The notes under the pieces: model-generated
Seen by the model: the letters and a program-made list of their open reading frames with translations, nothing else
Databases searched by the model: none
What the model was told of the DNA's origin: nothing
Translations under genes and position numbers: made by a program
Shown: in pieces, positions 43,649-64,000 of the stretch
Numbering within the stretch: the stretch's first letter is position 1
How the letters are laid out: every line of letters starts with the position of its first letter
NCBI GenBank assembly: GCA_964631415.1
Contig: CAZVZC010000006.1
Location: 3,001 to 67,000 of the forward strand
DNA length: 64,000 bases
Source: an uncultured archaeon
GTDB taxonomy: Archaea > Asgardarchaeota > Thorarchaeia > Thorarchaeales > Thorarchaeaceae
Direction of reading: 5' to 3'

Positions 43649-44335
43649 TTATGGGAGGTTCTTGAAGACCAGACAATAGCTGTGGTCATAGCCATAACCG
43701 TATGTGCCGCAGCCATTGTCCTGCCCTTCCCAACCTACCACGACCTCTCCCTCGAAGTAGAACAGTCGAGAGATCTCCCGTGCGACATCCCATGCGAAAA
43801 GCGTGACCTCACCGCGTTTCAGGTTCGAGGCCTCTATCACTACGCGCCCGTGCGGCTTGAGGACCTTCTTGACCTTTGTGTAGACTCTGCCTAGGTCCCG
43901 GAGGTAGGAGGCATAGTCCCCATCAGTCCTCGAACAAGTAAGAGGATTCATCCCATCATCCCGGTTCATGTAGGGCGGTGAACTCATGGCGAAGTCGATC
44001 CTCGGCAGTCCGTACGAGTCTAGCCTGAGGGCATCACCTTGGATCACGTTGGACTTGTGTTGCACCTGTGACCTGATGAACTCGAAACGACTCCCGTCGA
44101 GCTCGATGCCGTAAGGGACCCGTCCCATCTCTTCTGCGACCAACATAGTTGTGCCCAGTCCTGCGAACAGATCCAAGACCGTATCTCCGGGTTCTGTATA
44201 CTTGTCAAGGAAGTACTCAACGATTGCGTCAGGGTGACGATTGTCCTGCGACTGGAACTCAGGTGGGAGCAACCGCTTCTGAATTCTCTTGAGTACAATG
44301 TAGGTTCTCATAGGCTCCCGTCCGCTAGATAGCAC
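43649..44335 (-). CDS. (S)PPY-motif SAM-dependent methyltransferase, DNA N4/N6-methylase-like, no partner endonuclease
   Basis: Motif I 'VLDLFAGLGTTMLVAEEMGRVPYGIELD' precedes motif IV 'MSSPPYMN'. 'VKKVLKPHGRVVIE' is also present. Confidence 0.7.
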   Translation of the reverse strand: MLSSGREPMRTYIVLKRIQKRLLPPEFQSQDNRHPDAIVEYFLDKYTEPGDTVLDLFAGLGTTMLVAEEMGRVPYGIELDGSRFEFIRSQVQHKSNVIQGDALRLDSYGLPRIDFAMSSPPYMNRDDGMNPLTCSRTDGDYASYLRDLGRVYTKVKKVLKPHGRVVIEASNLKRGEVTLFAWDVAREISRLFYFEGEVVVGWEGQDNGCGTYGYGYDHSYCLVFKNLP

Positions 44336-50029: not shown

Positions 50030-50284
50030 GAGTGTGCGCCTCCAAGAGCGTCCTTCATTCGATGGGCCTACGATGTTATCCTCTGTCGTTGCCTATGGAT
50101 GTCTATTCTATTTATGTATTGAGCGGGGGTCACTGTAAGGAACATATTCCGGCCAGAGAACCGTTATTGAATCGACGACCCTACTAAACGCTTAATAGTT
50201 GACCAATCGGAGAGGCTGCAGCGCGCCCACCGCAGGGCTGCACATAGACGACTGCTACCCACAGTTCATGGTAAGTGAGAAAGG

Positions 50285-51460
50285 ATGGCTGAAGCTTTCA
50301 CCAGGCCTCGCCGCCGCATTGCCAACATGATTGCTAAGGAACTGCGCCTTATAGTCAAGGACAGGTTGGCCCTTTTCTTGATCTTCATGCTCCCGGCCGC
50401 ACTGATTGGTGTCTTGTATTGGGTTGTTGGCATGAGTGATCTGGGGAGCGTCCAGTTGGGTGGAGGAAACGGTCAAGGGAGCGATGAAGGGGGTGTAGAA
50501 ACCGGAAGTGACGTTGTTCTGGGGCTGATTGACCTTGACACTACGAGGACCTACAGTGGTGAGGATCTGTCGGAGAATTTCACAGCCTTTCTTACGAAAC
50601 TCGTTAAAGAACTCATAATCTACAACAACACAAGTGATGCCTTTCAGGACCTCTATGACAAGAAGATATCTGGATATGTGGTCATCCCAGACGGCTTCGA
50701 GGCAAACCTCACGATAAATGAGCCCACATACGTCGAAGTCCATATGGATGCAACTGCTCTGATTGAACAGAGCACAGTGATGGGGACGGTCCAAGGGGCC
50801 GCCATAATGTTCAGGGCCTCAAAGCTTTGGATTAGGTCTGAGGTCTTTCCCTCCATGATAATAGAGTTCGCACCAAAGGGAGGCTACATTGCCACTGCAT
50901 TCGGTGGGTTCATTGTGGTGTTTTCTAGCTACCTTGGGATAGCGATGACTGCTGCACAGTCCATAGTGGGCGATGTGCCTCTGCGCAGGATGCTTCTCAC
51001 ACCGACAAACAGGCTTGAAGTCATTATCGCCAAGGTAGCTGCGTATGTCATCATTGGCTTCTTTCAGTCCCTTCTTCTGGTTTCACTTTGGGTAGTAGTC
51101 TTCAGTCTGAATCTCAACACGAGCTTTGGAGTCCTACTGATCATTATGAGCTTGACATCTCTCACTGGGTCAACAACCGGCATTTTGATCTCCTCAGTCG
51201 CCTCGTCTAGGCTTCAAGCCAACCAGATGTTCCTGTTCGTCATGTTCGGGACAATCATCTTGGCAGGGTTCTTCGTCGATGTCGGGGTTCTGGATGAGTA
51301 CATGCCAATGAACCAAGGACTCAAGCTGTTGATTGACACCGCGTTCAAAGGGCTTTCACTGATTGATGTCCTGATTCCAATACTGAAGTTGCTTGCATTC
51401 TCCGTGGGTGCTATCCTGATTGCTACGTTCATCTTTTCAAAGAAGCCAACACTGGGGTAG
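50285..51460 (+). CDS. ABC-2 type transporter permease
   Basis: N-terminal TM, then a ~150-aa extracytoplasmic loop, then five C-terminal TM segments ('IATAFGGFIVVFSSYLGIAM', 'VAAYVIIGFFQSLLLVSLWVVVF', ...). This is the typical ABC2_membrane topology. Confidence 0.8.
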   Translation: MAEAFTRPRRRIANMIAKELRLIVKDRLALFLIFMLPAALIGVLYWVVGMSDLGSVQLGGGNGQGSDEGGVETGSDVVLGLIDLDTTRTYSGEDLSENFTAFLTKLVKELIIYNNTSDAFQDLYDKKISGYVVIPDGFEANLTINEPTYVEVHMDATALIEQSTVMGTVQGAAIMFRASKLWIRSEVFPSMIIEFAPKGGYIATAFGGFIVVFSSYLGIAMTAAQSIVGDVPLRRMLLTPTNRLEVIIAKVAAYVIIGFFQSLLLVSLWVVVFSLNLNTSFGVLLIIMSLTSLTGSTTGILISSVASSRLQANQMFLFVMFGTIILAGFFVDVGVLDEYMPMNQGLKLLIDTAFKGLSLIDVLIPILKLLAFSVGAILIATFIFSKKPTLG

Positions 51461-53152
51461 GTGAGAACGGCCTTGGTCGAGACATCTGGTTCTGAACCTG
51501 TTTTGCCCCGAGAGGTGCCTTCCTTTGTTGAGGAGGCGTACTTCTCTGGAGCTAGGATTGGTGACGCGATAGACTGGTGTATCCGGAGACAGGACCGAGA
51601 GATCCACTGCGAGGTCCAAGGAGTACTCACTTCTTCAAAGGCCGAAGTCAGATTCAAGGCACGAGTTCTGAGGTTCAAGAAAGGTGTCATAACACGTAGG
51701 ATTATAGTACTCGTCGAAGAGGACATGCGCAGAAAGAAGACAGGCGACCTCGATCCTGTTCTTACGGTTGGCAGCGAAGGTGCCGCACAAGAGGATGTTG
51801 CAGCTAGCCAGATCACTCTCCAGAACTACCTGAAGAGAAACATGTTCGATGACCTCTACTACGATGGCAGAGAACTGCAACAGGCGGCAAAGGACCTCGC
51901 CAAGATGAAGAGCAAGGAAATACTCTGCACGATTTGGGGTCATCGCGCTTCAGACAAGCTGCCAATGACCATCAAGGGTAATCTAGTGAGCTCCACAACT
52001 AGAGCAGCGCCCATACTACCTGAGGGCTTTCTTGAAGTCCGAGTGGAACCTGAGGACACGGTGGGCTCTCCAAAGATCTACTTGGTGGCCCAACCTCAGC
52101 TTCTCATTGGGCCTTTCTCGAATCCTGTTCTTACTGTCATCGCCGAGAAGGTCTACATCCGGCCGTTCGCTTGGAAGGAAGCACCGGTCTACAGGGACGT
52201 GCTTGTGGCACGGAATCTCACTGTCACTACGAAGGCCGGGAAAAAGCTGATTGAGAATGTCACTTTCGCGATTAGAGAGGGAGAGATGCTCGCTATCATC
52301 GGAGAATCTGGTGCAGGAAAGTCTACCTGTATCAAAGCTCTGATTGGAGACATACCTAGCACGGGCGTCGCGAGGATTGCTGGTATAGACTCAAGGAACG
52401 CACAGAAGGTCCGCTATTTCTTTGGTTACTGCCCACAGGACCTGAGCTACATGTACGAAACCTTCACTCCGCTCGAGAACATTGTCGCCTTTGGCAAGCA
52501 ATATGATATTCCCGAGTGGCAGCTCATAGAGGAAGGAAAGACTCTGCTCAGGGACTTCGGCATCATAGAGAAAGGTGGCAGCCCCACTGGAAAGCTCAGC
52601 GGCGGGCAGCAGCGCAGAGCATCAGTCGCCATAGCACTTGTCCATAGACCGAAAGTACTCCTGATGGATGAGCCTACAAGCGGACTGGACCCTGACAACA
52701 GGAATGAACTGTGGCACTTCTTGGACATGGTCAACAAGGAGTACGGCACATCTATTGTAGTCGTCACGCACTACCCAGCCGAGGCAGAGTTCTGCGACAA
52801 GGTCGCGGTCTTCCTCCGTGGCAAGAGCCTCGTGGCATTCGGCAGCCCTGCCAAGCTGAAGGAGTCACTGCCTTCGAGGGGCTTTGCTGTTGGGGTTGTA
52901 CTCGAGGAAGTGGATCCTCGAGCAAGAAAGATGCTAGAGGAAGTGCAGGGTGTGTCATTCGTGCTGCAGAGGGGAGAACTGCTGAAGGTCTTCACGGAAG
53001 AGCCACTCGAAACGATTGCAGAGAAGTGCATGACCGCACTCAAGGAGAAGAGCATTGGTGTGAAGATAGTGAAGACGAAGGCTCTAGCTGACATGGTCGA
53101 CTATTACATCGCCATAACAAGAAAGCTTGTCACAGGTACTATCGAGAAGTGA
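51461..53152 (+). CDS. ABC transporter ATP-binding protein with ~245-aa N-terminal domain of unknown function
   Basis: Walker A 'GESGAGKST' (aa ~281), signature 'LSGGQQRRA', Walker B 'LLMDEPTSGLD', 'VTHY'. There is no Met within ~75 aa upstream of the ABC domain start (nearest is M169 in 'LPMTIKGNL', ABC domain from aa ~247), so the extension appears fused. The GTG start directly abuts the permease stop. Confidence 0.8.
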   Translation: MRTALVETSGSEPVLPREVPSFVEEAYFSGARIGDAIDWCIRRQDREIHCEVQGVLTSSKAEVRFKARVLRFKKGVITRRIIVLVEEDMRRKKTGDLDPVLTVGSEGAAQEDVAASQITLQNYLKRNMFDDLYYDGRELQQAAKDLAKMKSKEILCTIWGHRASDKLPMTIKGNLVSSTTRAAPILPEGFLEVRVEPEDTVGSPKIYLVAQPQLLIGPFSNPVLTVIAEKVYIRPFAWKEAPVYRDVLVARNLTVTTKAGKKLIENVTFAIREGEMLAIIGESGAGKSTCIKALIGDIPSTGVARIAGIDSRNAQKVRYFFGYCPQDLSYMYETFTPLENIVAFGKQYDIPEWQLIEEGKTLLRDFGIIEKGGSPTGKLSGGQQRRASVAIALVHRPKVLLMDEPTSGLDPDNRNELWHFLDMVNKEYGTSIVVVTHYPAEAEFCDKVAVFLRGKSLVAFGSPAKLKESLPSRGFAVGVVLEEVDPRARKMLEEVQGVSFVLQRGELLKVFTEEPLETIAEKCMTALKEKSIGVKIVKTKALADMVDYYIAITRKLVTGTIEK

Positions 53153-53156
53153 TCTA

Positions 53157-56100
53157 ATGCTGGCATCTAGGCGAAACAGCAGAAGAGCCATCGCTCATCT
53201 GGTGACGCTCCTTGTGACTGTTTCGGTAGTGGTGGGCGCCCTAGTGGCCTCCATGCCCATGATTCCCCTCGATGCCATGTCAGCAGGGACTGCGGCGCAT
53301 ATCGATGAAGCCCTGTTAGAGTACACCGCGTCAGATGAGAGATTGGACTTGCTTGTTGGCTATCGCCCTGAAGCCGGTGAGATCAAGGCCCGCTATGCTA
53401 TACAGATGGCAGACAAGTCTGCCGAGATCATTGAGTCCTTCGAGGAAGTGGGCATAGTCCGAGTGAAACTGGTCGGCAAGGCCATCATGGACTTGGCAGA
53501 GAACGGCTATGTCACAGGAATATGGTCTAATCAGCTGAAGAAGCTGAGTACTCCTCTCGATCAGCATGCGTCAGATGTCCTGACAACGAACTATCAGTCG
53601 CCTATCGACACAGTTGGTGCCAGAGACCTCTGGGACAAAGGATACAATGGCACAGGGGTTGTTATTGCTGTCCTGGATACAGGTATCGACTTTCTTCACG
53701 CAGACCTGAACGACTTCGATGATGACAACACTACTAGCGACTCCAAGGTGACAGCGTATGCCTCGTTTGTTGAAGGTGACACTCTCCCCGTGGACATCAT
53801 CGGGCATGGCACGTACGCTGCTTCGATTGCGGCCGGTACAGGTAACAGGTCTGGTGGGCTCTACGCAGGTATCGCACCTGGAGCGACATTGCTCTCTGCA
53901 AAGGTGACCTTGGGAGGACTTCTCGCGGCGCCCAGCTGGATTGTCTCTGGCATCGAGTGGGCGTGCAGCAGAGGAGCAGACATCATACTCATGCCGTTCA
54001 ACACATTCGGTTCACCCGGCGATGCTGTATCTGTCGCTGTGAAGACTGCCTCTGAGAGAGGAGTCTTCGTCGTGGCCGCTGCGGGAGATGACGGACCAGA
54101 CTACCTGACAATAATGTCGCCTGGTGGAAGCGCTGCCGCCTTCGCGGTTGGAGCTTATGACATAAACAAGGGCGAAGTGGCCGCATTCTCGGGAAGGGGG
54201 CCCTCTCTTGACATGTTGGCAAAGCCAGACATTGTCGCCCCTGGCACTGGAATCATCGGAGCAAGAGCAGGAAATGCACTCTCGCTGGCTGGATTCGGGT
54301 CATTCAGCCTTGGGGACTTAGGTGGACTGTCTTCACTGCTCGGTGGCTCGTTTGGAGAGAACGTCGATGACTATTATATGAAGGCAGACTCGACCGCCGC
54401 CGCGGCCGCAGTCACGGCTGGATGCGTCGCGCTGCTCATGGAAGCCTTCGACCGCGCTACGCCCATTGTTCTAGCGAACGTTCTCAGAGACACAGCGACC
54501 CGGCTCGATGAAGGAGCAAATGACGCAGGGGCGGGCCTTCTAAACCTAGAAGCGGCTTTTCATTTCTTGGAACAGAAGCAGGATCCCATTCAACCACACA
54601 ACAGAACTACCGGCACCCCGCTGCTTGCATTGGGTCTCTTCTCTACACAAGGGAGAGATGCTTCAACCACTGTCTTGATGAGCAGTTATGGGACAGCTAT
54701 TGTTGCTCTGGATCAGCGACAGAATCAGGAAAGCAGCGTTCACCTTCTAATGGGTATGCTGGCACTCCGATGGGAAAACAGAAGCCCGACAGACTTCATG
54801 GAATTCCAAGTAAAGAGAGAACTCCATCAAGTGGCCATGAGCTCTGGGTTGAACTCCTATAACCGCTGGGTCGGGGTTCTATCATACGATTCACTATATG
54901 TCATCCTGCTGGTGGAGTCATACAACCTGACAAGCTCATCTCCTCTTCCAATCACCGCTTTCAGACTCACACCGTTCATCCTGAACCTTGGTTCAGAACC
55001 GGTTTCCAACGTGAGCTTGTTTCTCTCGTATTCACTGGACCTGTTTCTTGACGGGAGAGATGATCATGGCAAGTACTCGCTCACGAATCGACAGCTGTTT
55101 GCGTACAGCATATCTGAAGGCTACCAGTCTTTCTACGTAGGTATCAACTCAAGCCGCCCTCTGGACGCATTTGAGGTGGGAAACTCATCGCAGATTTCAG
55201 ACCACGTCTCGAACGATAATCTGACAGGTTCCACGAACTTCGACGGGACCGTAGGCCTCGCGATGAAATGGAACTTTGGAACGCTGCCCATCAACAGTCC
55301 GAAGAATGTTACAATAGCTTTGGGTTTTGGGGAGAACCGCACAATGCTTGACCAGTCAATCACAGCGATGTGGAGTCTCGGACCCTCATCCCAAGTCGCA
55401 AGCCAGAGCGACCTCATGGTTGTCGAGGCAGACATTCCGAGGACAGCAATTGCTGAACATGCATACGAGTCAAGAGCCGTCATAATGAATGTAGGAGTCA
55501 ATTCCTCTCAAGCTGTCGGTGCAATGATTATTGGACAAGCAGAACCAGGCGGAGCGATGATATTCAGTAGGTTCTATTCGTTCGATGAGGTTGCGCCCTT
55601 TCACGCCGAAATACTGACCACTGACTGGAGCCCAACAACAGACGGCATATACTCTGCAGCGTGGGTTGTCGCAGCGGGAGTTGAGTTTGCCATAGCCCTG
55701 TTTGCGAACCCGACTCAACAACTGGCGACAGCAGGCGTAGCGCTTCTTGACGACTTCCTCTTAAGGGATCTATTCGTTGTTGAGCCAATCCAGTCCACAT
55801 CGGTGTTTCCAAAATGGCTGCCATTCGCCCCATTCGACATACAATTCCCAGCAGACTTCGGACTCTATACGTTCTCTCTGCAAACGAATGTCCCTCTCGG
55901 TAACGTCACAGTGGAGAAGCATGGCGATGCCAGCGACTGGGGCAATGTGACCCTTCCTTCATGTGCTTCAGTGTTTGGATACTACAACTTCTCACTGTTC
56001 CTGCTAGCGCCACCCATTACTGTGGATGGTTATCACAGATGCGATTACCGGATCATCACTGAGTCTGGCTGGACGACCAATGTGACCCTTGAATGTGACC

Positions 56101-57503
56101 TCCGGTACCCCAGAGCCATGATGCTGCTTGACACTTCACATGGGGGAGGACTCAGTATAGGAGGTGGACTTGGCACCGGCAGCCAGACGGCAGACTCTGG
56201 TTCAGCGGGAATAACTGAAGGGCTTTCTATCAGCCTTGGGAGTCTTGACAGCCTCTCATCAATCACAGACATATTGGAGCAGTTCAGGATGACCACTTTC
56301 TCTGGTCTGTCCGAGATGAAGAAGTCGATGGCCTCCAGAGGCCTAGACCTCATTGAAACCCCAGGTATATCGTTGAGTCAGGAGATCCTGTCGCAGTTCT
56401 CAACCGTATTCATCATCGGACCGTCCAAAGAGTTCAACACAACTGAGATTGACATTCTGAGAGAGTTCACAGCAGAGGGAGGCCGACTCGTGGTACTGGG
56501 CGACTACGATGGTCGCGCCAACCTCACTGTGTTGAATGGCCTGCTTTCGCCCTATGGGTATGCAATGGCTGGCAAGCACACAGAAGACAACACGACCGAG
56601 ATAGTCCACAACTCGGCTCTTGGAGCAGGCTTGGAGTCCGTCTGGCTGGGAGGAGGCACGTTCATTGTCAACAACCAGTCACTGTCGGCAGTCATGCTGA
56701 CTGGCAGACCTGTGGTCCTTGTCGACAAGTCGCCCCCGGACCTCGTGCTCTTTGGGTCCTCACGTCTCTTCATGAACAAGAACCTGCCAAAGTGCAACAA
56801 CACTCTTCTGTTGCACAACCTCAACGAGTACCTGCTCTCTAACACGCTCACGTGCGTGACCAGCCTGGCAGAGAAGACGACGAGATACCCAGTCGGCAGG
56901 AGTGTCTACATCAACCTGAACGTGACAGACTACGCGGGGCAGCCTGCAAATGATCTGACTGTGTTCATTGCCTTCGAACTGCCAAATGGGAGCTTCGTAT
57001 ACTGGATTGCAGGCTTCGTAGAAAGGGGTCTCTACTCAACAAACTTTCCATACAGTTACTACAACTCGTCAGGCAGAGTAAACGGTGTATTCATTGTAAT
57101 GAGGACAGAAGAGTACGCAGGCACCTTTGCAGGTGTCAGCTTCGAGCTTTACCTAGAAACAACAACAACGCCCACTAGTGAAACAGAGGCTTTGCTGACA
57201 TTGCCTCAGATCGCATTGATCACTTCCGGGAGCGTGTTCGCCTTGTCAATCAGTATGCTGGCACTGAACAGATACCGACGGAGAAAGAAGATGCGCATTC
57301 CAGAGGTGGGTCCCGAGCTGGCCCGCGAGATAGACAACTCGCTCAACAACCTCCTTGCAGCGTTCATCCAGATGGGGGATCTCATCCATAGAGAAGACCT
57401 AGATCGTGTGCAGAAGATAGAGGTTCTGAGGGGTCTGATGAAGGGGCTGGAGGAGGCCAGAAAGAGGTTCGACAGGGTGAGTGAAACCATTGGAGGCACG
57501 TGA
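53157..57503 (+). CDS. Membrane-anchored subtilisin-like (S8) protease fused to large extracellular region including a GldG/DUF4350-like domain; C-terminal TM and cytoplasmic tail
   Basis: N-terminal anchor 'AHLVTLLVTVSVVVGALVA'. Asp 'VIAVLDTGID', His 'HGTYAASIAAG', Ser region 'KADSTAAAAAVTAG'. 'TVFIIGPSKEFNTTEIDILREFTAEGGRLVVLGD' is also present. TM 'IALITSGSVFALSISMLAL' is followed by 'RYRRRKK' and a ~70-aa tail. The track start is 53127; ATG 53157 is preferred. Confidence 0.8.
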   Translation: MLASRRNSRRAIAHLVTLLVTVSVVVGALVASMPMIPLDAMSAGTAAHIDEALLEYTASDERLDLLVGYRPEAGEIKARYAIQMADKSAEIIESFEEVGIVRVKLVGKAIMDLAENGYVTGIWSNQLKKLSTPLDQHASDVLTTNYQSPIDTVGARDLWDKGYNGTGVVIAVLDTGIDFLHADLNDFDDDNTTSDSKVTAYASFVEGDTLPVDIIGHGTYAASIAAGTGNRSGGLYAGIAPGATLLSAKVTLGGLLAAPSWIVSGIEWACSRGADIILMPFNTFGSPGDAVSVAVKTASERGVFVVAAAGDDGPDYLTIMSPGGSAAAFAVGAYDINKGEVAAFSGRGPSLDMLAKPDIVAPGTGIIGARAGNALSLAGFGSFSLGDLGGLSSLLGGSFGENVDDYYMKADSTAAAAAVTAGCVALLMEAFDRATPIVLANVLRDTATRLDEGANDAGAGLLNLEAAFHFLEQKQDPIQPHNRTTGTPLLALGLFSTQGRDASTTVLMSSYGTAIVALDQRQNQESSVHLLMGMLALRWENRSPTDFMEFQVKRELHQVAMSSGLNSYNRWVGVLSYDSLYVILLVESYNLTSSSPLPITAFRLTPFILNLGSEPVSNVSLFLSYSLDLFLDGRDDHGKYSLTNRQLFAYSISEGYQSFYVGINSSRPLDAFEVGNSSQISDHVSNDNLTGSTNFDGTVGLAMKWNFGTLPINSPKNVTIALGFGENRTMLDQSITAMWSLGPSSQVASQSDLMVVEADIPRTAIAEHAYESRAVIMNVGVNSSQAVGAMIIGQAEPGGAMIFSRFYSFDEVAPFHAEILTTDWSPTTDGIYSAAWVVAAGVEFAIALFANPTQQLATAGVALLDDFLLRDLFVVEPIQSTSVFPKWLPFAPFDIQFPADFGLYTFSLQTNVPLGNVTVEKHGDASDWGNVTLPSCASVFGYYNFSLFLLAPPITVDGYHRCDYRIITESGWTTNVTLECDLRYPRAMMLLDTSHGGGLSIGGGLGTGSQTADSGSAGITEGLSISLGSLDSLSSITDILEQFRMTTFSGLSEMKKSMASRGLDLIETPGISLSQEILSQFSTVFIIGPSKEFNTTEIDILREFTAEGGRLVVLGDYDGRANLTVLNGLLSPYGYAMAGKHTEDNTTEIVHNSALGAGLESVWLGGGTFIVNNQSLSAVMLTGRPVVLVDKSPPDLVLFGSSRLFMNKNLPKCNNTLLLHNLNEYLLSNTLTCVTSLAEKTTRYPVGRSVYINLNVTDYAGQPANDLTVFIAFELPNGSFVYWIAGFVERGLYSTNFPYSYYNSSGRVNGVFIVMRTEEYAGTFAGVSFELYLETTTTPTSETEALLTLPQIALITSGSVFALSISMLALNRYRRRKKMRIPEVGPELAREIDNSLNNLLAAFIQMGDLIHREDLDRVQKIEVLRGLMKGLEEARKRFDRVSETIGGT
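53604..54560 (+). other. Domain: peptidase S8 catalytic core
   Basis: Catalytic Asp codon at 53676-53678, His codon at 53805-53807, Ser codon at 54390-54392. The oxyanion-position codon at 54087-54089 encodes Asp. Confidence 0.75.
56341..56790 (+). other. Domain: GldG / DUF4350-like (ABC-2 transporter auxiliary, GATase1-like fold) - tentative
   Basis: 'STVFIIGPSKEFNTTEIDILREFTAEGGRLVVLGDYDG...LNGLLSPYG' resembles the 'dvlvi.gp...ls..e...l..fv..GG.Ll.l.d' core of ABC_transp_aux/DUF4350. Confidence 0.45.
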
Positions 57504-57504
57504 T

Positions 57505-58485
57505 ATGAGCACCACCCCTCGGCACGAAATCGAGATCGTCGACCTTAAGGTGGCGTTCAAGAAGCTCCTTGCACTCAAGGGAGTATCGTTCTACGCCGAC
57601 AAGAGAGAGTTCTTGGGTGTTGTGGGCGCGTCAGGAGCCGGCAAGACTACCGTGCTGAGAGTACTCACCGGGCAGATATCACCGACAGGGGGCAAGGCCT
57701 TCGTGGGCGGCTACGACGTCACCAAGAAGAGAAAACTCATCAGCCTCCTTGTTGGCTATGTGCCCCAGCTGGAGCACCTCAGCCTCTACTACGACTTCTC
57801 TGCAATTCAAAATGCGCAGTTCTTTGGCCGATGTTTTGGCATGAGACCAAAAGAGATTGAAGAGAGAGCAAGAAGCATACTGACAATCCTAGGCTTTGAT
57901 GAAGACCTGATGACCAAGAAGGTGGAGAAGCTCTCAGGAGGAGAGAGAAAGAGAGTATCGATATGCCTAGGGATGGTGCACAACCCTCCAGTGTTGCTTC
58001 TTGACGAACCAACGACAGGTCTGGATGCTCATTTACGGCATGAGACGCTGAACTACCTGAAGATGCTGAACTACGAACTCGGCACGACGATGGTGATAAT
58101 AAGCCACGACCTTGAAGTGGTGGACTACTGTACACGCGTCTGCCTGCTTGAGGACGGACAGGTTAGCCAGTTCGGCACGCCGGCCGATCTGATCTCGACG
58201 CTCCCAGGAAAAGGGGAGAGCATCCGTCTGGTCTTACCCAGAATGTCGTCTGCAGTCCTAGACAGGATTGTAGCACTGAAGAGCGTGAAATACTGGGCCA
58301 AGGCTGGCCGCAATGCAGTGAAGCTCTTTGTGGACGAGCCGCGCGAGCAGATGCTAGCCATCATAAAGAGCCTCAATGAAATGAAGATACCCTTCGAAGA
58401 GATTTCCCTTGTGGAGGCGGACTTCTTCGACTATTTCCAGGTCAAACCATGGAAGAAAAGGACCGAAGGTGTGACCCAATCATGA
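57505..58485 (+). CDS. ABC transporter ATP-binding protein (second ATPase of the module)
   Basis: Walker A 'GASGAGKTT', signature 'LSGGERKRV', Walker B 'LLLDEPTTGLD', 'ISHD', plus a ~100-aa C-terminal extension. ATG 57505 lies 1 nt after the protease stop (track start 57481). Confidence 0.85.
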   Translation: MSTTPRHEIEIVDLKVAFKKLLALKGVSFYADKREFLGVVGASGAGKTTVLRVLTGQISPTGGKAFVGGYDVTKKRKLISLLVGYVPQLEHLSLYYDFSAIQNAQFFGRCFGMRPKEIEERARSILTILGFDEDLMTKKVEKLSGGERKRVSICLGMVHNPPVLLLDEPTTGLDAHLRHETLNYLKMLNYELGTTMVIISHDLEVVDYCTRVCLLEDGQVSQFGTPADLISTLPGKGESIRLVLPRMSSAVLDRIVALKSVKYWAKAGRNAVKLFVDEPREQMLAIIKSLNEMKIPFEEISLVEADFFDYFQVKPWKKRTEGVTQS

Positions 58486-61400
58486 AGACCCTGTATGTAG
58501 CCCTGGTGACAATACTGGCACTCGCTTTGATAAGCATGCAGCAACCTGCTTCTGACCAGTTCGCCTTGCAGATTGATGTAAGACCGGTCCATACTCCATC
58601 GGCACCTGCGGTTCTCACGCCCTTCATGACGGCTTCGGTCTGGTCAAACACAACCGGTTCACAGGTAGTCGACCTTGTGCTGGCAGATGTAGACGGAGAT
58701 GGCCTGGATGAAGCAGCCGCTGTCACTCAAAACGGAACGCTCTTCTTGTTTGCAGAGAATGGCACGAAGCTCTGGCAAATGAACCTCGGTGCCTCACCTT
58801 ATGCTATGGAGCAGGCTGCGGCGGACGCTGACGCAAAGATGGAACTGCTGATAGGCACTGCGAAAGGTCTGCTTGTTGTGTGCGGCAACCAGAGTATCGC
58901 AACGAACGTCACACTTTCGAATGCTGTTAGAGCAGTGGCGCCTGTGGACTTGAACGGGGACTCAATAGATGAACTGTCGGCGGGTTGCGATGACTACAGG
59001 GTCTACGCTTACGCTCTGAACGCGACTCAGCTGTGGAACTACACAAGCAATGGACGTGTTCGCAGGATTCTGGCCGACGACTTCGACCTAGACGGACTAG
59101 GAGAGATCCTGTCTGCCTCTGATGGCAGGAGGGTCACATTACTGGAGAGCAATGGGACAGCAGTCTTCGAGGAGTTGAGCCCCAGCACCATTGGTGTCAT
59201 GGGCTCTGGTGACTTGACCGGCAGCTCTGACCTAGAGGCCATTGTTGGAACGGGCGCAGGAACAATCCAAGTCTACTGGCGAAACGGTACCCTCGCATTC
59301 TCGGTGGCCGTGAACAGCAGCGTATCCTCTCTGACTACAGGGCAAGTAGTTGTTGGAGGCTACGATGAATTTGCAGTCGGAACTTCGGGCAACGAGCTCA
59401 GAGTCTACAGCTCCTCCGGATCACTAATGTGGAACAGGACGTTGGGAGGGCAGGTTTCTGTGGTCAAGCTCCTAGATGTCGCGGGGCTGCCCGAAAATCA
59501 AGTTCTGGCGGGCTCTGACGGAGGAGCCCTGTTTCTCTACAATGCATCCGGATATCGGGTCAATCAGACTGTGGTCGGGGGTCTCGTCGGTGTTCTTGAT
59601 GTGGGTGACTTGGACGGAAATGGCAAGGCAGAGTATGCTGCAGGGACAAACACGGGACTCATGACAGTCTACGGACTTGATTATGACAGGGATGGTCTTG
59701 CCGATGCGAGAGAGACCCTTATCGTAGGCACTCTCTGGGACAATCCCGACACCGACGGTGACCGCCTGACCGACGGACAGGAGGTCCTCCAGTACGGAAC
59801 AAACCCGCTCAAGCCCGACTCTGATTCTGACGGGCTCTCAGACTTTGCAGAGGTCATCACGTATGGCACAGATCCCAACAGCGTTGACTCGGATGCTGAC
59901 AGGCTGACGGACTGGCAAGAGGTCTACCTGGGGACCAACCCCAACCGAGCTGACACAGATGGAGACCAGCTCACAGACTACGAGGAGAACAATGTCACGC
60001 TGACTGACCCAGAAGTTGCCGACACGAACGGTAACGGCATAAACGATGCCCAAGATGATAATGACGGAGAAGGTCTCACAAATATCCAGGAAGTCAGATT
60101 GACTTACACAGACCCGAACGATGTCGATTCTGACAATGATGGGGTTTCCGACTACTATGATGATCAGGACGCAGACAACCTCGCAAACTGGAAAGAGATC
60201 TCGGTCGGCACTGACCCACTAAACCCGGACAGTGACTCGGATGGTCTGCGGGACGGTGATGAGGTCAAATTCTGGAAGACGGACCCTCTCAGTGAGGACA
60301 CTGATTCGGACCAGCTGACTGACTACGACGAAGTGATGACGGTCCACTCCAATCCGAAGGTGGCAGACACCGATGGAGACGGGCTTGATGATTACGCCGA
60401 GTATGTCACCTATGGCACTAATTCCTCTGACCCTGACACTGACGACGATGGTCTCAACGACTATGATGAGATACGCGTATACTCGACGAATGCAACCAAT
60501 CCCGACAGCGACGCTGACGGACTGCTTGATGGCGCCGAGGTCAATACATGGAAGACAGACCCCAACAGTAACGACACTGACCTCGATGGCCTCACAGACT
60601 ATGCAGAGGTGGTGACTTGGCATACCAATGCTACGTTGACAGATACAGATGCAGACGGGCTAGATGACGGACAGGAGATTATTACCTACCACACCAATGC
60701 GACCTCTGTCGACACCGACCTTGACGGAGTATGGGACAAGGACGAGGTGGATCGCTATCCTATCTTCAATGCCACGAATGCGCACACGTTCAACAGCACT
60801 GTCAATGACTACGAATGGGACTACGATAGTGATGGACTTTCGAACGGCTTTGAGATATATATGACCCGGACCAATCCGTTGCTCGCAGACACTGACGGGG
60901 ACGGAACCCTTGATGATCTCGAGGACTCGGATCTTGATGGACTTGACAACTACGAGGAACTCGTCGCAGCAACACATCCCAGAAGACCGGACAGTGACGG
61001 GGATGGCGTGAAGGATGGTGACGAGGTCAAGGTCCTAGACACGGACCCTAATGACAAGGATACCGATGACGACTCCACAAATGACTATGACGAGGACTTC
61101 GACGGAGACCGACTATCAAACGGTGTCGAACTATACATAACGCATACGGACCCGAAGAACGCCCACACTCACGGAGCAGGACAGGCTCGTGACGACTACT
61201 ATGATAGTGACAGCGACGGGCTGTCCAATTGGTTCGAAGTGGTGATGAGCCGCACCGATCCAGTCTACAATGATACGGATGACGACGGCACTCTCGACAC
61301 ACAGGAAGACCCTGACAATGACAGACTTGACAACATTCACGAGTTTCTTGCGGGGACTGACCCCTTGGCAGCTGACACGGACAGCGATGGACTGACCGAC

Positions 61401-64000
61401 TATGAAGAGGTCCATGAAGCGTACACGAGCCCCTTGAAGAGCGACTCGGATGATGATGGAGTCCTTGACGGCAATGACGATCAGGACAATGATGGCCTGA
61501 CCAATCTGCAGGAAATCCGAACCTATGGCACCAATGCGACGAACTGGGACACTGATGGTGATATGCTGAGGGACGGGTTGGAGATCAGCCTCGGCCTGAA
61601 TGCAACTGAGGCAGATACTGACAAGGATGGTCTCTACGATGGATATGAGGACCTGAACCACAACGGCAGATGCGACATGGGTGAGTCGGGAGAAGATCCT
61701 GACGCTGACGGTGTTGTCGACGCTGGTGAAACTGACCCCGCGAACGCTGACACCGATGGAGACGGTCTGAATGATGGAGATGAGTGGACTCATGGAACCA
61801 ACCCATTGAGGGAGGACTCGGACAGCGACGGTCTCTTAGATGGGCAGGAGGTCCACAGTTTTGGCACCAGTCCTCTGAGCAATGACACGGACCTTGACAT
61901 GCTGAGCGACTACATTGAGGTCAACGTCACACTGACCGACCCCTTGAGCAACATGACGCATTCGGGAGTGCTAGACTACGACTGGGACTCAGACTCAGAC
62001 GGTCTGACAAATGGAGAAGAGGTCTATGTCTACAGGACTTCACCTGGAGACATGGACTCAGACAATGACGGTCTGTTCGATGGATTCGAGATAAATGGTT
62101 TCACCGTGTCGTTCTACAATAGTAGCGGCACATTGGAAACTATGATGGTCATTTCTGACCCTCTTCAATTGGACTCAGACGGAGACAATCTGACCGACTA
62201 CGATGAGTGGGTGTATGGAACAGACCCCAGAAGAAAAGACACGGACCGCGATGGTATCGACGATCACATAGAGATATCCTACCTGTCTACGAACGCCACC
62301 CGTTGGTCAACGTTCATGAATGGAACATCCGACTTCCATCTTGATAACGATGGCGACGGCCTTTCAAATGGCCTGGAAATATATGGATACAACTCGAATG
62401 CTACCAGTTCAGATAGTGATGTTGATGGCCTGCCGGACGGTATAGAGGTCTATATTGCAGGTTCCAGCCCAACAGACAAGGACACAGACAATGATGGGCT
62501 CTCGGACTATCTCGAGTACATGGTCTGTAAGACGAACCCACGGGAAAACGACAGCGACTTCGATGGGCTCACAGACTACTACGAGGTCTACACATCACTG
62601 ACAGACCCTAACAACTGGGATAGCGACGTCGACGGACTCTCGGATGCAGATGAGGTGAATCAATACGGGACTGACCCCAACAAGGCGGACTCTGATTCGG
62701 ACGGGATAGGCGACAAGAGGGAACTCGACCTTGGCACAGACCCGAACTCAAACGACACTGATTCTGACGGACTTAGCGATTGGCAGGAATGGAAGGTGTA
62801 TCGCACTGACCCCACTGTGGCAGACTCTGATAGTGACGGTCTGAAGGACGGGGATGAGATCAGTAATGGAACGGATCCCATGAACCCCGACACTGATTTC
62901 GACTCTCTGACAGACGGTGACGAGGTCAACAAGTATAGCACGGACCCCATGAACCCCGACACTGACTCTGACGGACTGGCAGACAACGACGAGATACTCA
63001 ACAGCCATACAGACCCAACAAACCCAGATAGCAACGGCAACGGAATCCGCGACGACCTTGATGATGAGGACGCCGACGGGCTCAACAACTTCCTTGAGAT
63101 ATACATGTACCAGACGAACTGCACACTGCTGGACACCGACGGAGATCGCCTAGCCGACGGCTACGAAGTCTTCACGAGTCACACTGATCCACGAAAGGCG
63201 GACTCTGACGAAGACGGACTCGATGACTGGGATGAGATGTTTCGATATTCCACCGACCCTAAAGCGGTTGACTCTGATGGAGATGGTTTGACCGATGGGG
63301 AGGAGGTCCTGACCTACCACACACTCCCGAACAAGAGTGACACAGACAATGACACTGTCAACGACTATGACGAGCTCAAGGTGTTCGCTACCGATCCTCT
63401 GAACCCGGACTCCGACTTCGACGGACTGACAGACGGACAAGAGCTCTACGTATACAATACCGACCCCCTGAGAGAGGATACCGACTCGGATGGGCTTCTC
63501 GACTCTCGAGAGATACTTCTACGCACTAACCCCCTGAGCAATGACACTGACAGCGACAGGCTCAGCGACTTTGAGGAGGCAAACGTCACTCTCACTGATC
63601 CACTGGTGTATAGCACCAAGGGTGACGGAACTTCTGATGCAGACTGGGACATGGACAACGACACCCTCACCAACTGGCAGGAGATTCGCCTCACAAAGAC
63701 AGACCCGCGTAATGCGGACAGCGATAGTGACACCATCTTAGATGGCGCTGACGACGAGGACAGGGACTTGCTGACCAACTATGAGGAGTGCTGGCTTACT
63801 AGGACAGACCCAAGAAACAAAGACAGCGATGGTGACGGGGTTTCGGACCTCAATGACGACGAAGACGGCGAGGGGCTAACGAACGGAGAAGAGTGCCACA
63901 CCTATTTCACGAATCCGTTGGTCGAAGATACGGACGGTGACAGACTATCAGACTACGAAGAGGCAAAGGAATACGGCACGAATCCATTGATGAAGGATTC
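58482..64000 (+). CDS. Giant secreted/surface protein (5' partial in window, >1839 codons): signal peptide + FG-GAP/VCBS propeller + long array of thrombospondin-type-3-like Ca-binding repeats
   Basis: This ORF is not on the ORF track because it has no stop before the window end. The ATG at 58482 overlaps the upstream TGA (ATGA). I translated the frame by hand from 58482 through ~60660 and at spot checks to 63840 and found no stop. N-terminus 'MKTLYVALVTILALALISMQQPASD'. Repeats include 'TDPxxxDSDSDGLxDGxE'. Confidence 0.85.
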   Translation, partial: MKTLYVALVTILALALISMQQPASDQFALQIDVRPVHTPSAPAVLTPFMTASVWSNTTGSQVVDLVLADVDGDGLDEAAAVTQNGTLFLFAENGTKLWQMNLGASPYAMEQAAADADAKMELLIGTAKGLLVVCGNQSIATNVTLSNAVRAVAPVDLNGDSIDELSAGCDDYRVYAYALNATQLWNYTSNGRVRRILADDFDLDGLGEILSASDGRRVTLLESNGTAVFEELSPSTIGVMGSGDLTGSSDLEAIVGTGAGTIQVYWRNGTLAFSVAVNSSVSSLTTGQVVVGGYDEFAVGTSGNELRVYSSSGSLMWNRTLGGQVSVVKLLDVAGLPENQVLAGSDGGALFLYNASGYRVNQTVVGGLVGVLDVGDLDGNGKAEYAAGTNTGLMTVYGLDYDRDGLADARETLIVGTLWDNPDTDGDRLTDGQEVLQYGTNPLKPDSDSDGLSDFAEVITYGTDPNSVDSDADRLTDWQEVYLGTNPNRADTDGDQLTDYEENNVTLTDPEVADTNGNGINDAQDDNDGEGLTNIQEVRLTYTDPNDVDSDNDGVSDYYDDQDADNLANWKEISVGTDPLNPDSDSDGLRDGDEVKFWKTDPLSEDTDSDQLTDYDEVMTVHSNPKVADTDGDGLDDYAEYVTYGTNSSDPDTDDDGLNDYDEIRVYSTNATNPDSDADGLLDGAEVNTWKTDPNSNDTDLDGLTDYAEVVTWHTNATLTDTDADGLDDGQEIITYHTNATSVDTDLDGVWDKDEVDRYPIFNATNAHTFNSTVNDYEWDYDSDGLSNGFEIYMTRTNPLLADTDGDGTLDDLEDSDLDGLDNYEELVAATHPRRPDSDGDGVKDGDEVKVLDTDPNDKDTDDDSTNDYDEDFDGDRLSNGVELYITHTDPKNAHTHGAGQARDDYYDSDSDGLSNWFEVVMSRTDPVYNDTDDDGTLDTQEDPDNDRLDNIHEFLAGTDPLAADTDSDGLTDYEEVHEAYTSPLKSDSDDDGVLDGNDDQDNDGLTNLQEIRTYGTNATNWDTDGDMLRDGLEISLGLNATEADTDKDGLYDGYEDLNHNGRCDMGESGEDPDADGVVDAGETDPANADTDGDGLNDGDEWTHGTNPLREDSDSDGLLDGQEVHSFGTSPLSNDTDLDMLSDYIEVNVTLTDPLSNMTHSGVLDYDWDSDSDGLTNGEEVYVYRTSPGDMDSDNDGLFDGFEINGFTVSFYNSSGTLETMMVISDPLQLDSDGDNLTDYDEWVYGTDPRRKDTDRDGIDDHIEISYLSTNATRWSTFMNGTSDFHLDNDGDGLSNGLEIYGYNSNATSSDSDVDGLPDGIEVYIAGSSPTDKDTDNDGLSDYLEYMVCKTNPRENDSDFDGLTDYYEVYTSLTDPNNWDSDVDGLSDADEVNQYGTDPNKADSDSDGIGDKRELDLGTDPNSNDTDSDGLSDWQEWKVYRTDPTVADSDSDGLKDGDEISNGTDPMNPDTDFDSLTDGDEVNKYSTDPMNPDTDSDGLADNDEILNSHTDPTNPDSNGNGIRDDLDDEDADGLNNFLEIYMYQTNCTLLDTDGDRLADGYEVFTSHTDPRKADSDEDGLDDWDEMFRYSTDPKAVDSDGDGLTDGEEVLTYHTLPNKSDTDNDTVNDYDELKVFATDPLNPDSDFDGLTDGQELYVYNTDPLREDTDSDGLLDSREILLRTNPLSNDTDSDRLSDFEEANVTLTDPLVYSTKGDGTSDADWDMDNDTLTNWQEIRLTKTDPRNADSDSDTILDGADDEDRDLLTNYEECWLTRTDPRNKDSDGDGVSDLNDDEDGEGLTNGEECHTYFTNPLVEDTDGDRLSDYEEAKEYGTNPLMKD
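58615..59673 (+). other. Domain: FG-GAP/VCBS-type propeller blades of the giant protein
   Basis: 'LADVDGDGLDEAAAVTQNGTLFLF', 'PVDLNGDSIDELSAGCDDYRVYAY', 'ADDFDLDGLGEILSASDGRRVTLL', 'SGDLTGSSDLEAIVGTGAGTIQVY', 'GGYDEFAVGTSGNELRVY', 'ENQVLAGSDGGALFLY', 'VGDLDGNGKAEYAAGTNTGLMTVY'. Confidence 0.7.
59674..64000 (+). repeat. In-frame tandem array of degenerate ~66-78-nt units encoding D-x-D-x-D-G (TSP3-like) calcium-binding repeats
   Basis: Dozens of units of the form '(Y/W)xTDPxxxD(S/T)DxDGLxDxxE'. Example of a recent local duplication: the 20-mer 'cccatgaaccccgacactga' occurs at 62877-62896 and again at 62946-62965, a 69-nt offset. Confidence 0.85.

Follow-up and report, generated by a model that had tools for sequence, protein, structure and literature searches.

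A conserved five-gene ABC-2 transporter operon of Thorarchaeota with a degenerate subtilase-GIFT protein and a giant calcium-binding surface protein

What is built by five tightly packed genes in which a transporter, a subtilase homologue and a giant surface protein stand side by side? We investigated a stretch of 64,000 nucleotides from an uncultured archaeon of the Thorarchaeaceae (GenBank assembly GCA_964631415.1, contig CAZVZC010000006.1, positions 3,001 to 67,000 of the forward strand; the whole stretch is called the window). Here these genes encode an ATP-binding cassette (ABC) permease of the ABC-2 type, a long and a short ABC ATPase, a 1448-aa membrane protein that joins a subtilase (S8) fold to a GIFT (GldG/IFT52-type) domain and is called the S8-GIFT protein, and a giant surface protein, the product of gene 5, with an FG-GAP propeller and thrombospondin type-3 (TSP3) calcium-binding repeats. 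This parts list, put forward in an original prediction made from the sequence alone, proved essentially right by Pfam and NCBIfam searches, whereas the export and processing machine that it had proposed for the giant protein was not supported. We find that the module is a real and strongly conserved operon of Thorarchaeota, and we favour, with moderate confidence, the reading that its five genes encode subunits of one cell-surface membrane complex, a variant of a system that occurs in several Asgard lineages.

Operon structure and conservation across Asgard lineages

The module consists of five plus-strand genes that extend from 50285 to past 64000 and are spaced by 0-4 nt or overlap. The list of open reading frames and the junction sequences bear out the tight coupling and the gene positions first proposed, and the same list confirms the non-coding gap of 255 nt ahead of them. 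The elements are as follows, in window positions:

50030-50284, no strand: intergenic region, 255 nt between the permease gene and the divergent gene up807
50285-51460, + strand: permease gene, 391 aa
51461-53152, + strand: long ATPase gene, 563 aa; its GTG start abuts TAG 51458-51460
53157-57503, + strand: S8-GIFT gene (originally the 'subtilase/GldG-like fusion'), 1448 aa; ATG 4 nt past TGA 53150-53152
57505-58485, + strand: short ATPase gene, 326 aa; ATG 1 nt past TGA 57501-57503
58482-64000, + strand, cut by the window end: gene 5 (giant surface protein), joined to the short ATPase gene by an ATGA overlap

The frame of gene 5 is open for 1839 codons, to base 63998. The intergenic region 50030-50284 is the only non-coding gap in the module and carries one TATA-like element, TTTATGT at 50111 on the plus strand; from its sequence it is presumed to be the promoter region of the operon. 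Upon checking for terminators that might split the genes, we found no T run of five or more on the plus strand of 50285-64000, and terminator-like sites were not commoner than in shuffled sequence (9 versus 10.2 ± 3.7), with none at any gene junction. Separately, sigma-70-like promoter matches in 49900-64000 numbered 17 versus 8.6 ± 2.7 in shuffles; this bacterial consensus is not meaningful for an archaeon and was left unused, and the excess probably reflects sequence composition.

Next, we examined gene-neighbourhood conservation with a tblastn census of 76 Thorarchaeota loci from species-representative genomes, in which counts give the loci with the gene over the loci with enough flank. The long ATPase stands beside the S8-GIFT gene in 71/71 loci, and the permease, the short ATPase and the gene-5 N-terminus are near it in 57/57, 51/51 and 48/48, respectively, with the same order and the same strand wherever the contig extends far enough; the divergent 807-aa gene, up807, is present in 44/45. 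With order and strand kept in every Thorarchaeota locus whose flanks suffice, the arrangement greatly exceeds what chance would give. Homologues over the full length of the 1448-aa protein number more than 120 (53-91% identity), nearly all of them from metagenome-assembled genomes (MAGs) of Thorarchaeota. In the species-representative scan the orthologues are mostly only 51-61% identical between species, and the next matches after the 76 Thorarchaeota loci, in Chloroflexota, are confined to the S8 domain and only 31-35% identical. One Thorarchaeota chromosome of 2.58 Mb (CP070658.1; locus L078, 10001-10918) has an S8-GIFT match that ends at residue 322, with no match for the short-ATPase orthologue, gene 5 or the 807-aa gene nearby although the flanks are present; this copy could be disrupted or rearranged.

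These counts have to be read against another explanation, namely that the genes are neighbours through inherited gene order only and that transporter, subtilase homologue and giant protein act independently. It draws on the flanking FAD-dependent oxidoreductase and tetratricopeptide repeat (TPR) genes, which are also partly syntenic among Thorarchaeota, so that synteny within this group is weaker evidence than the counts suggest and evidence from outside it matters more.

We therefore turn to the more distant Asgard loci. When the non-protease part of the S8-GIFT protein was compared with 1.84 billion representatives, only 73 proteins matched (E <= 1e-3), and the named full-length matches came from Promethearchaeota, Ranarchaeia, Helarchaeota or Hodarchaeales. 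The family appears to be restricted to Asgard archaea, being seen in Thorarchaeota, Ranarchaeia, Hodarchaeales, one MAG labelled Helarchaeota, and others. In a distant lineage with 34% identity and different flanks (L084) we observe the same five genes, one of which encodes a TSP3/propeller protein of 2196 aa, and after them a TPR gene. In Ranarchaeia (L086), a single 1692-aa protein comprises a signal peptide, an FG-GAP propeller, an Ig-like stalk, a transmembrane helix and the permease, its C-terminal 390 aa being 39% identical to the permease of the window (E 9e-80); the long ATPase, the S8-GIFT protein and the short ATPase follow, and there is no separate giant gene. In Hodarchaeales (L088) the short ATPase comes first, followed by two permease paralogues, the long ATPase, S8-GIFT, a small transmembrane protein and a 1359-aa protein; the last of these, in the gene-5 position, is a type-I anchored, NosD-like beta-helix protein, which has a signal peptide and a C-terminal transmembrane anchor. 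A further locus (L089) has the permease and an S8-GIFT protein with Asp-His-Ser; the two ATPase genes, long and short, flank this pair on the opposite strand. The conserved Asgard core therefore consists of one or more permeases, both ATPases and the S8-GIFT protein. To this core a large type-I anchored surface protein is added in a lineage-specific way, in one lineage as a fusion with the permease. Since Ranarchaeia fuse a similar propeller to the permease, gene 5 looks like a subunit and not like cargo.

Inherited gene order thus has to account for a core that persists in L084, L086, L088 and L089 despite wholly different flanks and even a rearranged order, for the propeller-permease fusion of L086, and for stop and start codons that overlap or abut. 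Additionally, GIFT/ABC_transp_aux domains generally partner ABC-2 transporters, according to the Pfam family definition. We consider independent action of these neighbours highly improbable.

Two observations on these distant loci stand apart. In L085, where the S8-GIFT gene stands alone, the 804-aa gene that lies upstream of it shows no similarity to up807. In L089, an OST3/OST6-like gene (412-981; a weak match) lies about 6 kb from the S8-GIFT/ABC cluster; the GIFT domain also occurs in the oligosaccharyltransferase subunit Wbp1 (PMC7226087).

The transporter and the S8-GIFT protein

The permease matches the Pfam models ABC2_membrane_3 (78.7 bits, cut-off 31.6) and ABC2_membrane (45 bits, cut-off 26.9) and is an ABC-2 permease (type V, ABCA-like). 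Its hydropathy profile, with six to seven hydrophobic segments in total, gives an N-terminal transmembrane helix, an ectodomain of about 150 aa (residues 49-201, nt 50429-50887) and then five or six transmembrane helices. Both ATPases match ABC_tran (long 87.5 bits, short 93.3 bits), and their best NCBIfam subfamily is drrA (long 171, short 178 bits), but neither is DrrA proper, because these scores fall below the cut-off of 312. Both have the full set of Walker A, Q-loop, signature, Walker B and H-loop motifs (for the long and short ATPase, GESGAGKS and GASGAGKT, LSGGQQRR and LSGGERKR, LLMDEP and LLLDEP, THY and SHD); the predicted pairing of an ABC-2 permease with two ATPases was thus confirmed, and both ATPases are intact. 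The parts of the ATPases are:

51461-52195, + strand: N-terminal cytoplasmic domain of the long ATPase, ~245 aa, with a beta-barrel like that of the TrmB C-terminal domain at residues 43-121
after the N-terminal domain, + strand: remainder of the long ATPase, a DrrA-type nucleotide-binding domain and then a C-terminal domain
57505-58485, + strand: short ATPase, a DrrA-type nucleotide-binding domain and a C-terminal domain

The unusual stoichiometry of two ATPase genes to one permease gene, which had been remarked on from the outset, is real and conserved. The two proteins are about 32% identical to each other and form two orthologous series that match reciprocally across Asgard loci, the long type occurring in L084, L086, L088 and L089 and the short type in all ABC-linked Asgard loci. 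Both paralogues are ancient and always co-occur, and the two-permease Hodarchaeales version suggests that the ancestral transporter was fully heterodimeric. Positions ~160-232 of the TrmB model PF11495 match the N-terminal domain of the long ATPase in 10/10 orthologues; a role as a sugar sensor was rejected, as the match spans only the C-terminal beta-barrel of the model, and a homology search with the N-terminal domain returned only orthologue fragments.

The S8-GIFT protein lies between the two ATPase genes. Its layout, compiled from hydropathy, Pfam and profile matches, alignment to subtilisin BPN' and AlphaFold2 models, is as follows (residues of the 1448-aa protein):

residues 12-30, + strand: transmembrane helix 1 or signal anchor (hydropathy), followed by a propeptide-like region
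53577-54566, + strand: subtilase-fold domain, residues ~141-470 (Pfam, BPN' alignment)
54087-54089, + strand: oxyanion position, Asp311 (BPN' alignment)
54393-54395, + strand: nucleophile position, Thr413 (BPN' alignment)
54630-56144, + strand: beta-sandwich domains, residues ~492-996 (model), followed by a Gly-rich linker
56301-56840, + strand: GIFT domain, residues ~1049-1228 (model, profiles)
residues 1231-1332, + strand: second beta-sandwich (model)
57189-57290, + strand: transmembrane helix 2, residues ~1345-1378 (hydropathy, model)
after transmembrane helix 2, + strand: helical cytoplasmic tail, ~70-85 aa (model)

This two-helix layout, as given by hydropathy and the model, is the topology of GldG-type auxiliary proteins. 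The GldG/DUF4350 domain that had been suspected around 56341-56790 is real. On the whole protein, the Pfam matches to GIFT, DUF4350 and ABC_transp_aux (residues 1072-1221) stay just under threshold; when the C-terminal part is scanned alone, IFT52_GIFT reaches 30.5 bits against a cut-off of 27.2, and ABC_transp_aux matches 14/16 family members (best E 8.9e-10). Across the Pfam and NCBIfam scans the match extends over residues ~1031-1221. A single-sequence search of the PDB with the non-protease part returned nothing significant and a GIFT-domain profile was needed, which finds IFT52 with E 2.9e-15 and site-1 protease (S1P) with E 0.95. Furthermore, the alpha/beta domain of the model superposes on the IFT52 GIFT domain with a template-modelling score (TM-score) of 0.61-0.67 and a root-mean-square deviation (rmsd) of 3.0.

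Upon examining the active site, we observe that the subtilase fold is present (Peptidase_S8 147.5 bits; Foldseek TM-score 0.86-0.91 and rmsd 2.2-3.0 against subtilisins), whereas the Asp-His-Ser triad and the oxyanion Asn of an active subtilase are absent. Thr413 aligns with the nucleophile Ser221 and Asp311 with the oxyanion Asn155 of subtilisin BPN', and each of the two replacements is found in 121/121 Thorarchaeota orthologues. Asp-His-Thr is kept in 110 of these 121; the catalytic His is changed to Ser or Pro in seven and the Asp to Ala in one, and the operon is whole in those genomes (among them L040, L048 and L050). Of 21 diverse Asgard members, 13 have Arg, Ser, Ile, Thr or Asp in place of the His, and only three retain the full Asp-His-Ser; in L084 and L088 the His is Arg, and in L086 the Asp is Gly. 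At the same time the S8 domain is the most conserved part of the 1448-aa protein, with 70% mean identity. Because triad residues are lost repeatedly while the S8 domain stays the most conserved part, the conserved function would appear to use the subtilase fold and not, or not necessarily, catalysis. A role as the cognate maturation protease of the operon appears unlikely, since Ser and oxyanion Asn are replaced throughout the Thorarchaeota orthologues and His or Asp is repeatedly lost in the Asgard family.

We also compared models of the protein with solved structures. Model 1 (residues 457-1448; predicted local distance difference test score, pLDDT, 74) comprises beta-sandwiches, the Gly-rich linker, the alpha/beta domain, a beta-sandwich, the transmembrane helix and the tail, and still matches the human S1P ectodomain over ~450 columns even though it lacks the S8 domain. 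Model 2 (residues 141-1340) is confident overall (pLDDT 86.2; predicted TM-score, pTM, 0.85), and its best two PDB matches in Foldseek are both human S1P (9csd_A, E 7.6e-27; 8uw8_A, E 1.4e-25), with 1152-1156 aligned columns and a TM-score of 0.51-0.52 normalised to S1P, or 0.51 over 744 residues. S1P thereby outranks Tk-SP, Vpr and classical subtilisins as a structural match of model 2. Some of the beta-sandwich domains resemble those of glycoside hydrolases, with matches to glucodextranase, beta-galactosidase and Man38C.

The order of parts in S1P (MBTPS1/SKI-1) is signal or anchor, pro-region, Peptidase S8, P-like beta-sandwich, GIFT, transmembrane helix and cytoplasmic tail (PMC12067269), and the S8-GIFT protein has the same order. 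It differs from S1P in having Thr and Asp where S1P has S414 and N338, in ~450 extra beta-sandwich residues and in its place in an ABC-transporter operon. In sequence, Tk-SP and classical subtilisins resemble its S8 domain more than S1P does, and its GIFT domain lies nearer to that of IFT52. S1P was rejected as the closest sequence relative, being absent from the 60 best PDB sequence matches; in the family member P0134 it appears with E 3e-19, over the S8 domain only and ranked below classical subtilisins. The Pfam model MBTPS1_4th is significant in 3/16 family members (best E 7e-9), and the protein of the window scores 16.7-18.1 bits against a cut-off of 27. As S1P is not the closest relative by sequence, the link lies in architecture and fold: the S8-GIFT protein is, on its modelled structure, S1P-like in architecture and not a member of the S1P family by sequence, and common descent of the fusion is not claimed.

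The structural match raises the question of whether the protein also works as S1P does, which uses its catalytic Ser on membrane-bound substrates and has SPRING as a cofactor. In such a model, a slow or ligand-gated Thr protease would cut the juxtamembrane region of the gene-5 protein, or of another membrane protein, and free or activate the conserved cytoplasmic domain, with the ATPases gating access. The domain order and the top structural match speak for this, as do the Asp-His-Thr set retained by most Thorarchaeota and the strong conservation of the gene-5 cytoplasmic domain (66% identity across species). However, His or Asp has gone from many members whose ABC genes are still in place, which shows that the conserved function needs no triad, and the clusters of L001 and L084 contain no site-2-protease-type gene. 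Threonine, moreover, is a poor substitute for serine in subtilisin-type sites. On balance we regard proteolysis of this kind as improbable.

The giant surface protein and a proposed mechanism

Gene 5 was described at the outset as a giant repeat protein, and its FG-GAP propeller and TSP3 calcium-binding repeats are real by Pfam matches; the gene is incomplete in the window, which holds 1839 of ~2263 codons, and complete orthologues have ~2260 aa. As exact look-ups of the permease, the short ATPase and up807 matched no record, the missing 3' end was taken from the orthologues L001 and L004 (86-88% identical; 2263 aa each). The parts present in the window are:

gene-5 residues 1-19, + strand: signal peptide
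58602-59741, + strand: FG-GAP/BBS2-like beta-propeller, residues ~41-420 (BBS7, BBS2_Mid, CGLA and FG-GAP_3 models)
from 59742, + strand: uninterrupted array of TSP3 calcium-binding repeats (TSP3_bac 235.9 bits)

The orthologues add further TSP3 repeats, one transmembrane helix, a basic stop-transfer motif and a cytoplasmic domain of ~120 aa that ends in the conserved ...FELQPGAEGELVGMVEYD..GEHRVVNLKPVKIVA. In complete orthologues the TSP3 array runs unbroken for ~1700 residues, the Asp content of the ectodomain is 22-25%, and 54 DxDxDG motifs are present in L001. With an N-terminal signal peptide, a C-terminal transmembrane anchor and a conserved cytoplasmic domain, the product looks like an ordinary Sec-inserted type-I membrane protein. 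Its length is 2260.9 ± 12.6 aa in 35 species, and the repeat region aligns collinearly (0-3% gaps, 62-66% identity, against 48% for the propeller), without any DNA-level tandem repeat found by Tandem Repeats Finder in gene 5. This pattern, unlike that of rapidly varying repeat adhesins, suggests that both length and register are important to the structure. In the propeller, the Pfam models BBS7 and BBS2_Mid score above cut-off and generic FG-GAP models match too, and among PDB sequences BBS2 is the sole significant match (E 4.2e-5); a comparison with integrin alpha was dropped, as no integrin was among these matches.

A few irregular copies of gene 5 were seen. N runs break the gene in several assemblies (L003/L032, CP070761.1, at ~17750-17875; L007; L041) and lead to falsely short gene calls, of which the '784-aa' gene 5 of CP070761.1 is one, an artefact of a masked N run and not a short gene; the repeat region seems hard to assemble. 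In L014 (~21826) and L044 (~16155) gene 5 stops just past the transmembrane helix, and in L014 the conserved cytoplasmic domain continues in another frame (match at 21809-22183), so that these early ends are probably a frameshift or sequencing error.

Next, we compared the number of N-x-S/T sequons with that in shuffled sequence for each predicted ectodomain:

53247-57188, + strand: S8-GIFT ectodomain, 25 sequons found versus 9.7 ± 2.7 expected
58539-63998, + strand: gene-5 ectodomain, 41 found versus 20.4 expected
gene-5 propeller: 13 found versus 3.2 expected
50429-50887, + strand: permease ectodomain, 4 found versus 1.0 expected

Sequons are thus ~2- to 4-fold enriched in every predicted ectodomain, with no enrichment in the ATPases or up807 (up807: 2 versus 2.6 expected), and 15/25 S8-GIFT sequons are conserved in at least 90% of 121 orthologues. 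This confinement to ectodomains supports the predicted topology, and the pattern suggests a conserved, heavy N-glycosylation of these domains.

How do these properties bear on the export machine first proposed, with the ABC transporter as exporter of the giant FG-GAP/TSP3 protein and the subtilase as the enzyme for its maturation, processing or release? The gene for a giant calcium-binding repeat protein is indeed translationally coupled to that for an ABC ATPase and lies near an S8-fold protein. The prevalence of Asp-His-Thr among Thorarchaeota orthologues and the three distant members with Asp-His-Ser, which imply that the ancestor was probably an active enzyme, would also fit. However, Ser and oxyanion Asn are absent from every Thorarchaeota orthologue, and His or Asp was lost independently in operon-keeping lineages (L040, L048, L050, L084, L086, L088). 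Gene 5 has a signal peptide, a transmembrane anchor and a cytoplasmic domain in place of a C-terminal secretion signal; its length and repeat register are fixed, in which variable adhesins differ; and in Ranarchaeia a propeller is fused to the permease. The comparison with bacterial giant-adhesin systems, by which the original prediction had illustrated its idea, here drawn with type I secretion of RTX/Lap-type adhesins and a cognate protease, shares a giant acidic calcium-binding repeat protein beside ABC ATPases and a protease-fold protein, yet it fails on all defining parts: the permease is ABC-2 and not ABC_membrane/C39, the gene calls of the L001 and L084 loci contain no membrane-fusion protein or outer-membrane channel gene, the secretion signal is of the wrong kind and the nucleophile is missing. 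Export and processing of the giant protein by its neighbours is, in our view, quite improbable.

The reading that we favour, a single membrane complex, would work as follows. Its engine would be a type-V (ABC-2/ABCA-like) transporter, formed by the permease, probably as a dimer, and a heterodimer of the two predicted catalytically competent ATPases, to which the long ATPase may contribute its additional cytoplasmic domain as a sensor or adaptor. One of the two partners on the outside would be the heavily N-glycosylated, two-helix S8-GIFT protein in the role of a GldG-type auxiliary, its degenerate S8 site most likely making it a binding or scaffolding module and no protease. The other would be a type-I anchored stalk with a fixed length of 2,260 residues, with ~70 calcium-binding TSP3 repeats and the propeller on top. 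Both extracytoplasmic partners would be held beside the ABC-2 engine by their own transmembrane helices, and ATP binding and hydrolysis in the cytoplasm would be coupled to them via the permease. The coupling might take the form of an exported lipid- or glycan-type substrate that is handed to the extracellular partners, or of a mechanical change in the shape of these partners. The nearest working analogy is NosDFY, where an ABC-2 transporter acts on a bound extracytoplasmic protein. The usual cargo of ABC-2/ABCA-type transporters is lipids, lipid-linked glycans or polymers. By analogy with this cargo, and given the glycoside-hydrolase-like beta-sandwiches, a lipid or glycan substrate is plausible.

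Several points weigh against this reading. The partial synteny of the Thorarchaeota flanks has been mentioned. Two Asgard loci, L085 and L087, carry the S8-GIFT gene without adjacent ABC genes. The propeller of the L086 fusion is only 25% identical to the gene-5 propeller (E 2e-7) and may not be orthologous. The retention of Asp-His-Thr is unusual for a fully dead site, and a slow or unusual Thr-based activity could persist in the S8-GIFT protein. Finally, the functional role of the module is throughout what we infer, and this applies to the physical assembly and stoichiometry of the subunits, to the direction and nature of what is moved, and to a biological role in adhesion, envelope building or cell-cell contact.

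Relation to known systems, neighbouring genes and significance

Among the closest known systems are the GldA/GldF/GldG transporter of Bacteroidota and the wider ABC_transp_aux (PF09822) systems, with which the module shares an ABC-2 permease, an ATPase and a GIFT auxiliary protein flanked by two transmembrane helices. The present system adds a subtilase fold and beta-sandwiches to the auxiliary protein, a second ATPase and a giant surface protein, and its host is an archaeon. The likeness invites the proposal of an archaeal GldAFG-type gliding or adhesion apparatus, in which the TSP3 giant would be an adhesin like the myxobacterial CglD. The GldFG/GldA layout agrees with it, and gene 5 lies nominally above the CglD cut-off (NF033765; 411 versus 400 bits), although this score is summed over 10 TSP3-repeat stretches, the best covering 169-312 of 1124 model positions, and does not reflect coverage of the whole model. 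On the other side, the ATPases score 132.7 and 97.9 bits for GldA (TIGR03522), far under the cut-off of 402.6, so that neither is a GldA equivalog, and neither the permease nor the 1448-aa protein has an NCBIfam GldF or GldG match (E <= 0.01). Moreover, we know of no established function for GldAFG itself, so the comparison explains little, and nothing is known to us of motility in Thorarchaeota. We consider a gliding apparatus fairly improbable.

In the NosDFY(L) system, an ABC-2-type transporter (NosF ATPase, NosY permease) cooperates with the membrane-associated, extracytoplasmic NosD (PMC8457098). In Hodarchaeales the place of gene 5 is even taken by a NosD-like beta-helix protein, whereas the Thorarchaeota partner is a TSP3/propeller protein without a beta-helix; the present system also lacks nos genes and a copper chaperone and has two nucleotide-binding-domain paralogues and an S8-GIFT subunit. 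Among solved structures, the closest sequence relatives of the GIFT domain and of the gene-5 propeller are the ciliary IFT52 and BBS2/BBS7/BBS9, respectively. In comparison with intraflagellar transport and the BBSome, the likeness is here one of single domains in predicted extracellular, glycosylated archaeal proteins, and no further parts of either system are present. That two neighbouring genes resemble ciliary proteins is a lead, and it may reflect only shared ancient folds.

By sequence criteria the module belongs neither to GldAFG nor to type I secretion nor to the S1P family. It is an uncharacterised variant of the 'ABC-2 transporter + GIFT auxiliary protein' theme, found so far only in Asgard archaea. 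We agree with the original prediction that no characterised system of this composition is known; a literature search of incomplete coverage found no paper joining site-1 protease with Asgard archaea, nor one on a Thorarchaeota subtilisin/ABC-transporter system.

The genes around the operon are listed here, those upstream of up807 after the gene calls of a locus with 88-97% identity (L001):

40645-43608: GH38 alpha-mannosidase-like protein
43649-44335: N6/N4 DNA methyltransferase
44344-45951: FAD-dependent oxidoreductase, succinate dehydrogenase/aspartate oxidase type
47606-50029, - strand: up807, 807 aa, divergent; no Pfam family and no convincing transmembrane segment

Up807 occurs in Thorarchaeota only and is absent beside the operon in the distant loci L084, L086 and L088. 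The lack of sequon enrichment is consistent with a cytoplasmic location, and up807 is a possible cytoplasmic partner or regulator whose membership of the system is uncertain. Downstream of gene 5, past the end of the window, a cytoplasmic TPR protein of ~420 aa is encoded in L001 (22202-23458), in L084 (16846-18129) and in many Thorarchaeota loci, and this gene may be the sixth of the operon unit.

The surfaces of Asgard archaea and their contacts with partners are central to ideas on the origin of eukaryotes, with molecular knowledge almost nil; in the module, their biology would gain a conserved surface system of several subunits that is so far uncharacterised. The S8-GIFT protein offers a clean natural case of a subtilase fold under strong selection after loss of the nucleophile. 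To our knowledge, its family comprises the first prokaryotic proteins with the complete site-1-protease layout, and the origin of S1P becomes testable via phylogeny and structure. Furthermore, the natural variants, with a gene fusion and swapped surface partners, are informative for GIFT-domain ABC-2 systems as a whole, whose function has stayed unknown since GldAFG was described. A more far-reaching idea, which we put forward as speculative and rather unlikely, is that the Asgard S8-GIFT family is the prokaryotic forerunner of S1P and was originally the extracytoplasmic subunit of an ATP-driven ABC-2 machine that mechanically operates large glycosylated surface proteins through heterodimeric ATPases. 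If this were true, the stalk of Thorarchaeota, 2,260 residues long, fixed in length and stiffened by Ca2+, would carry an integrin/BBS-like propeller and would allow the cell surface or the contact between cells to be controlled from the inside out.

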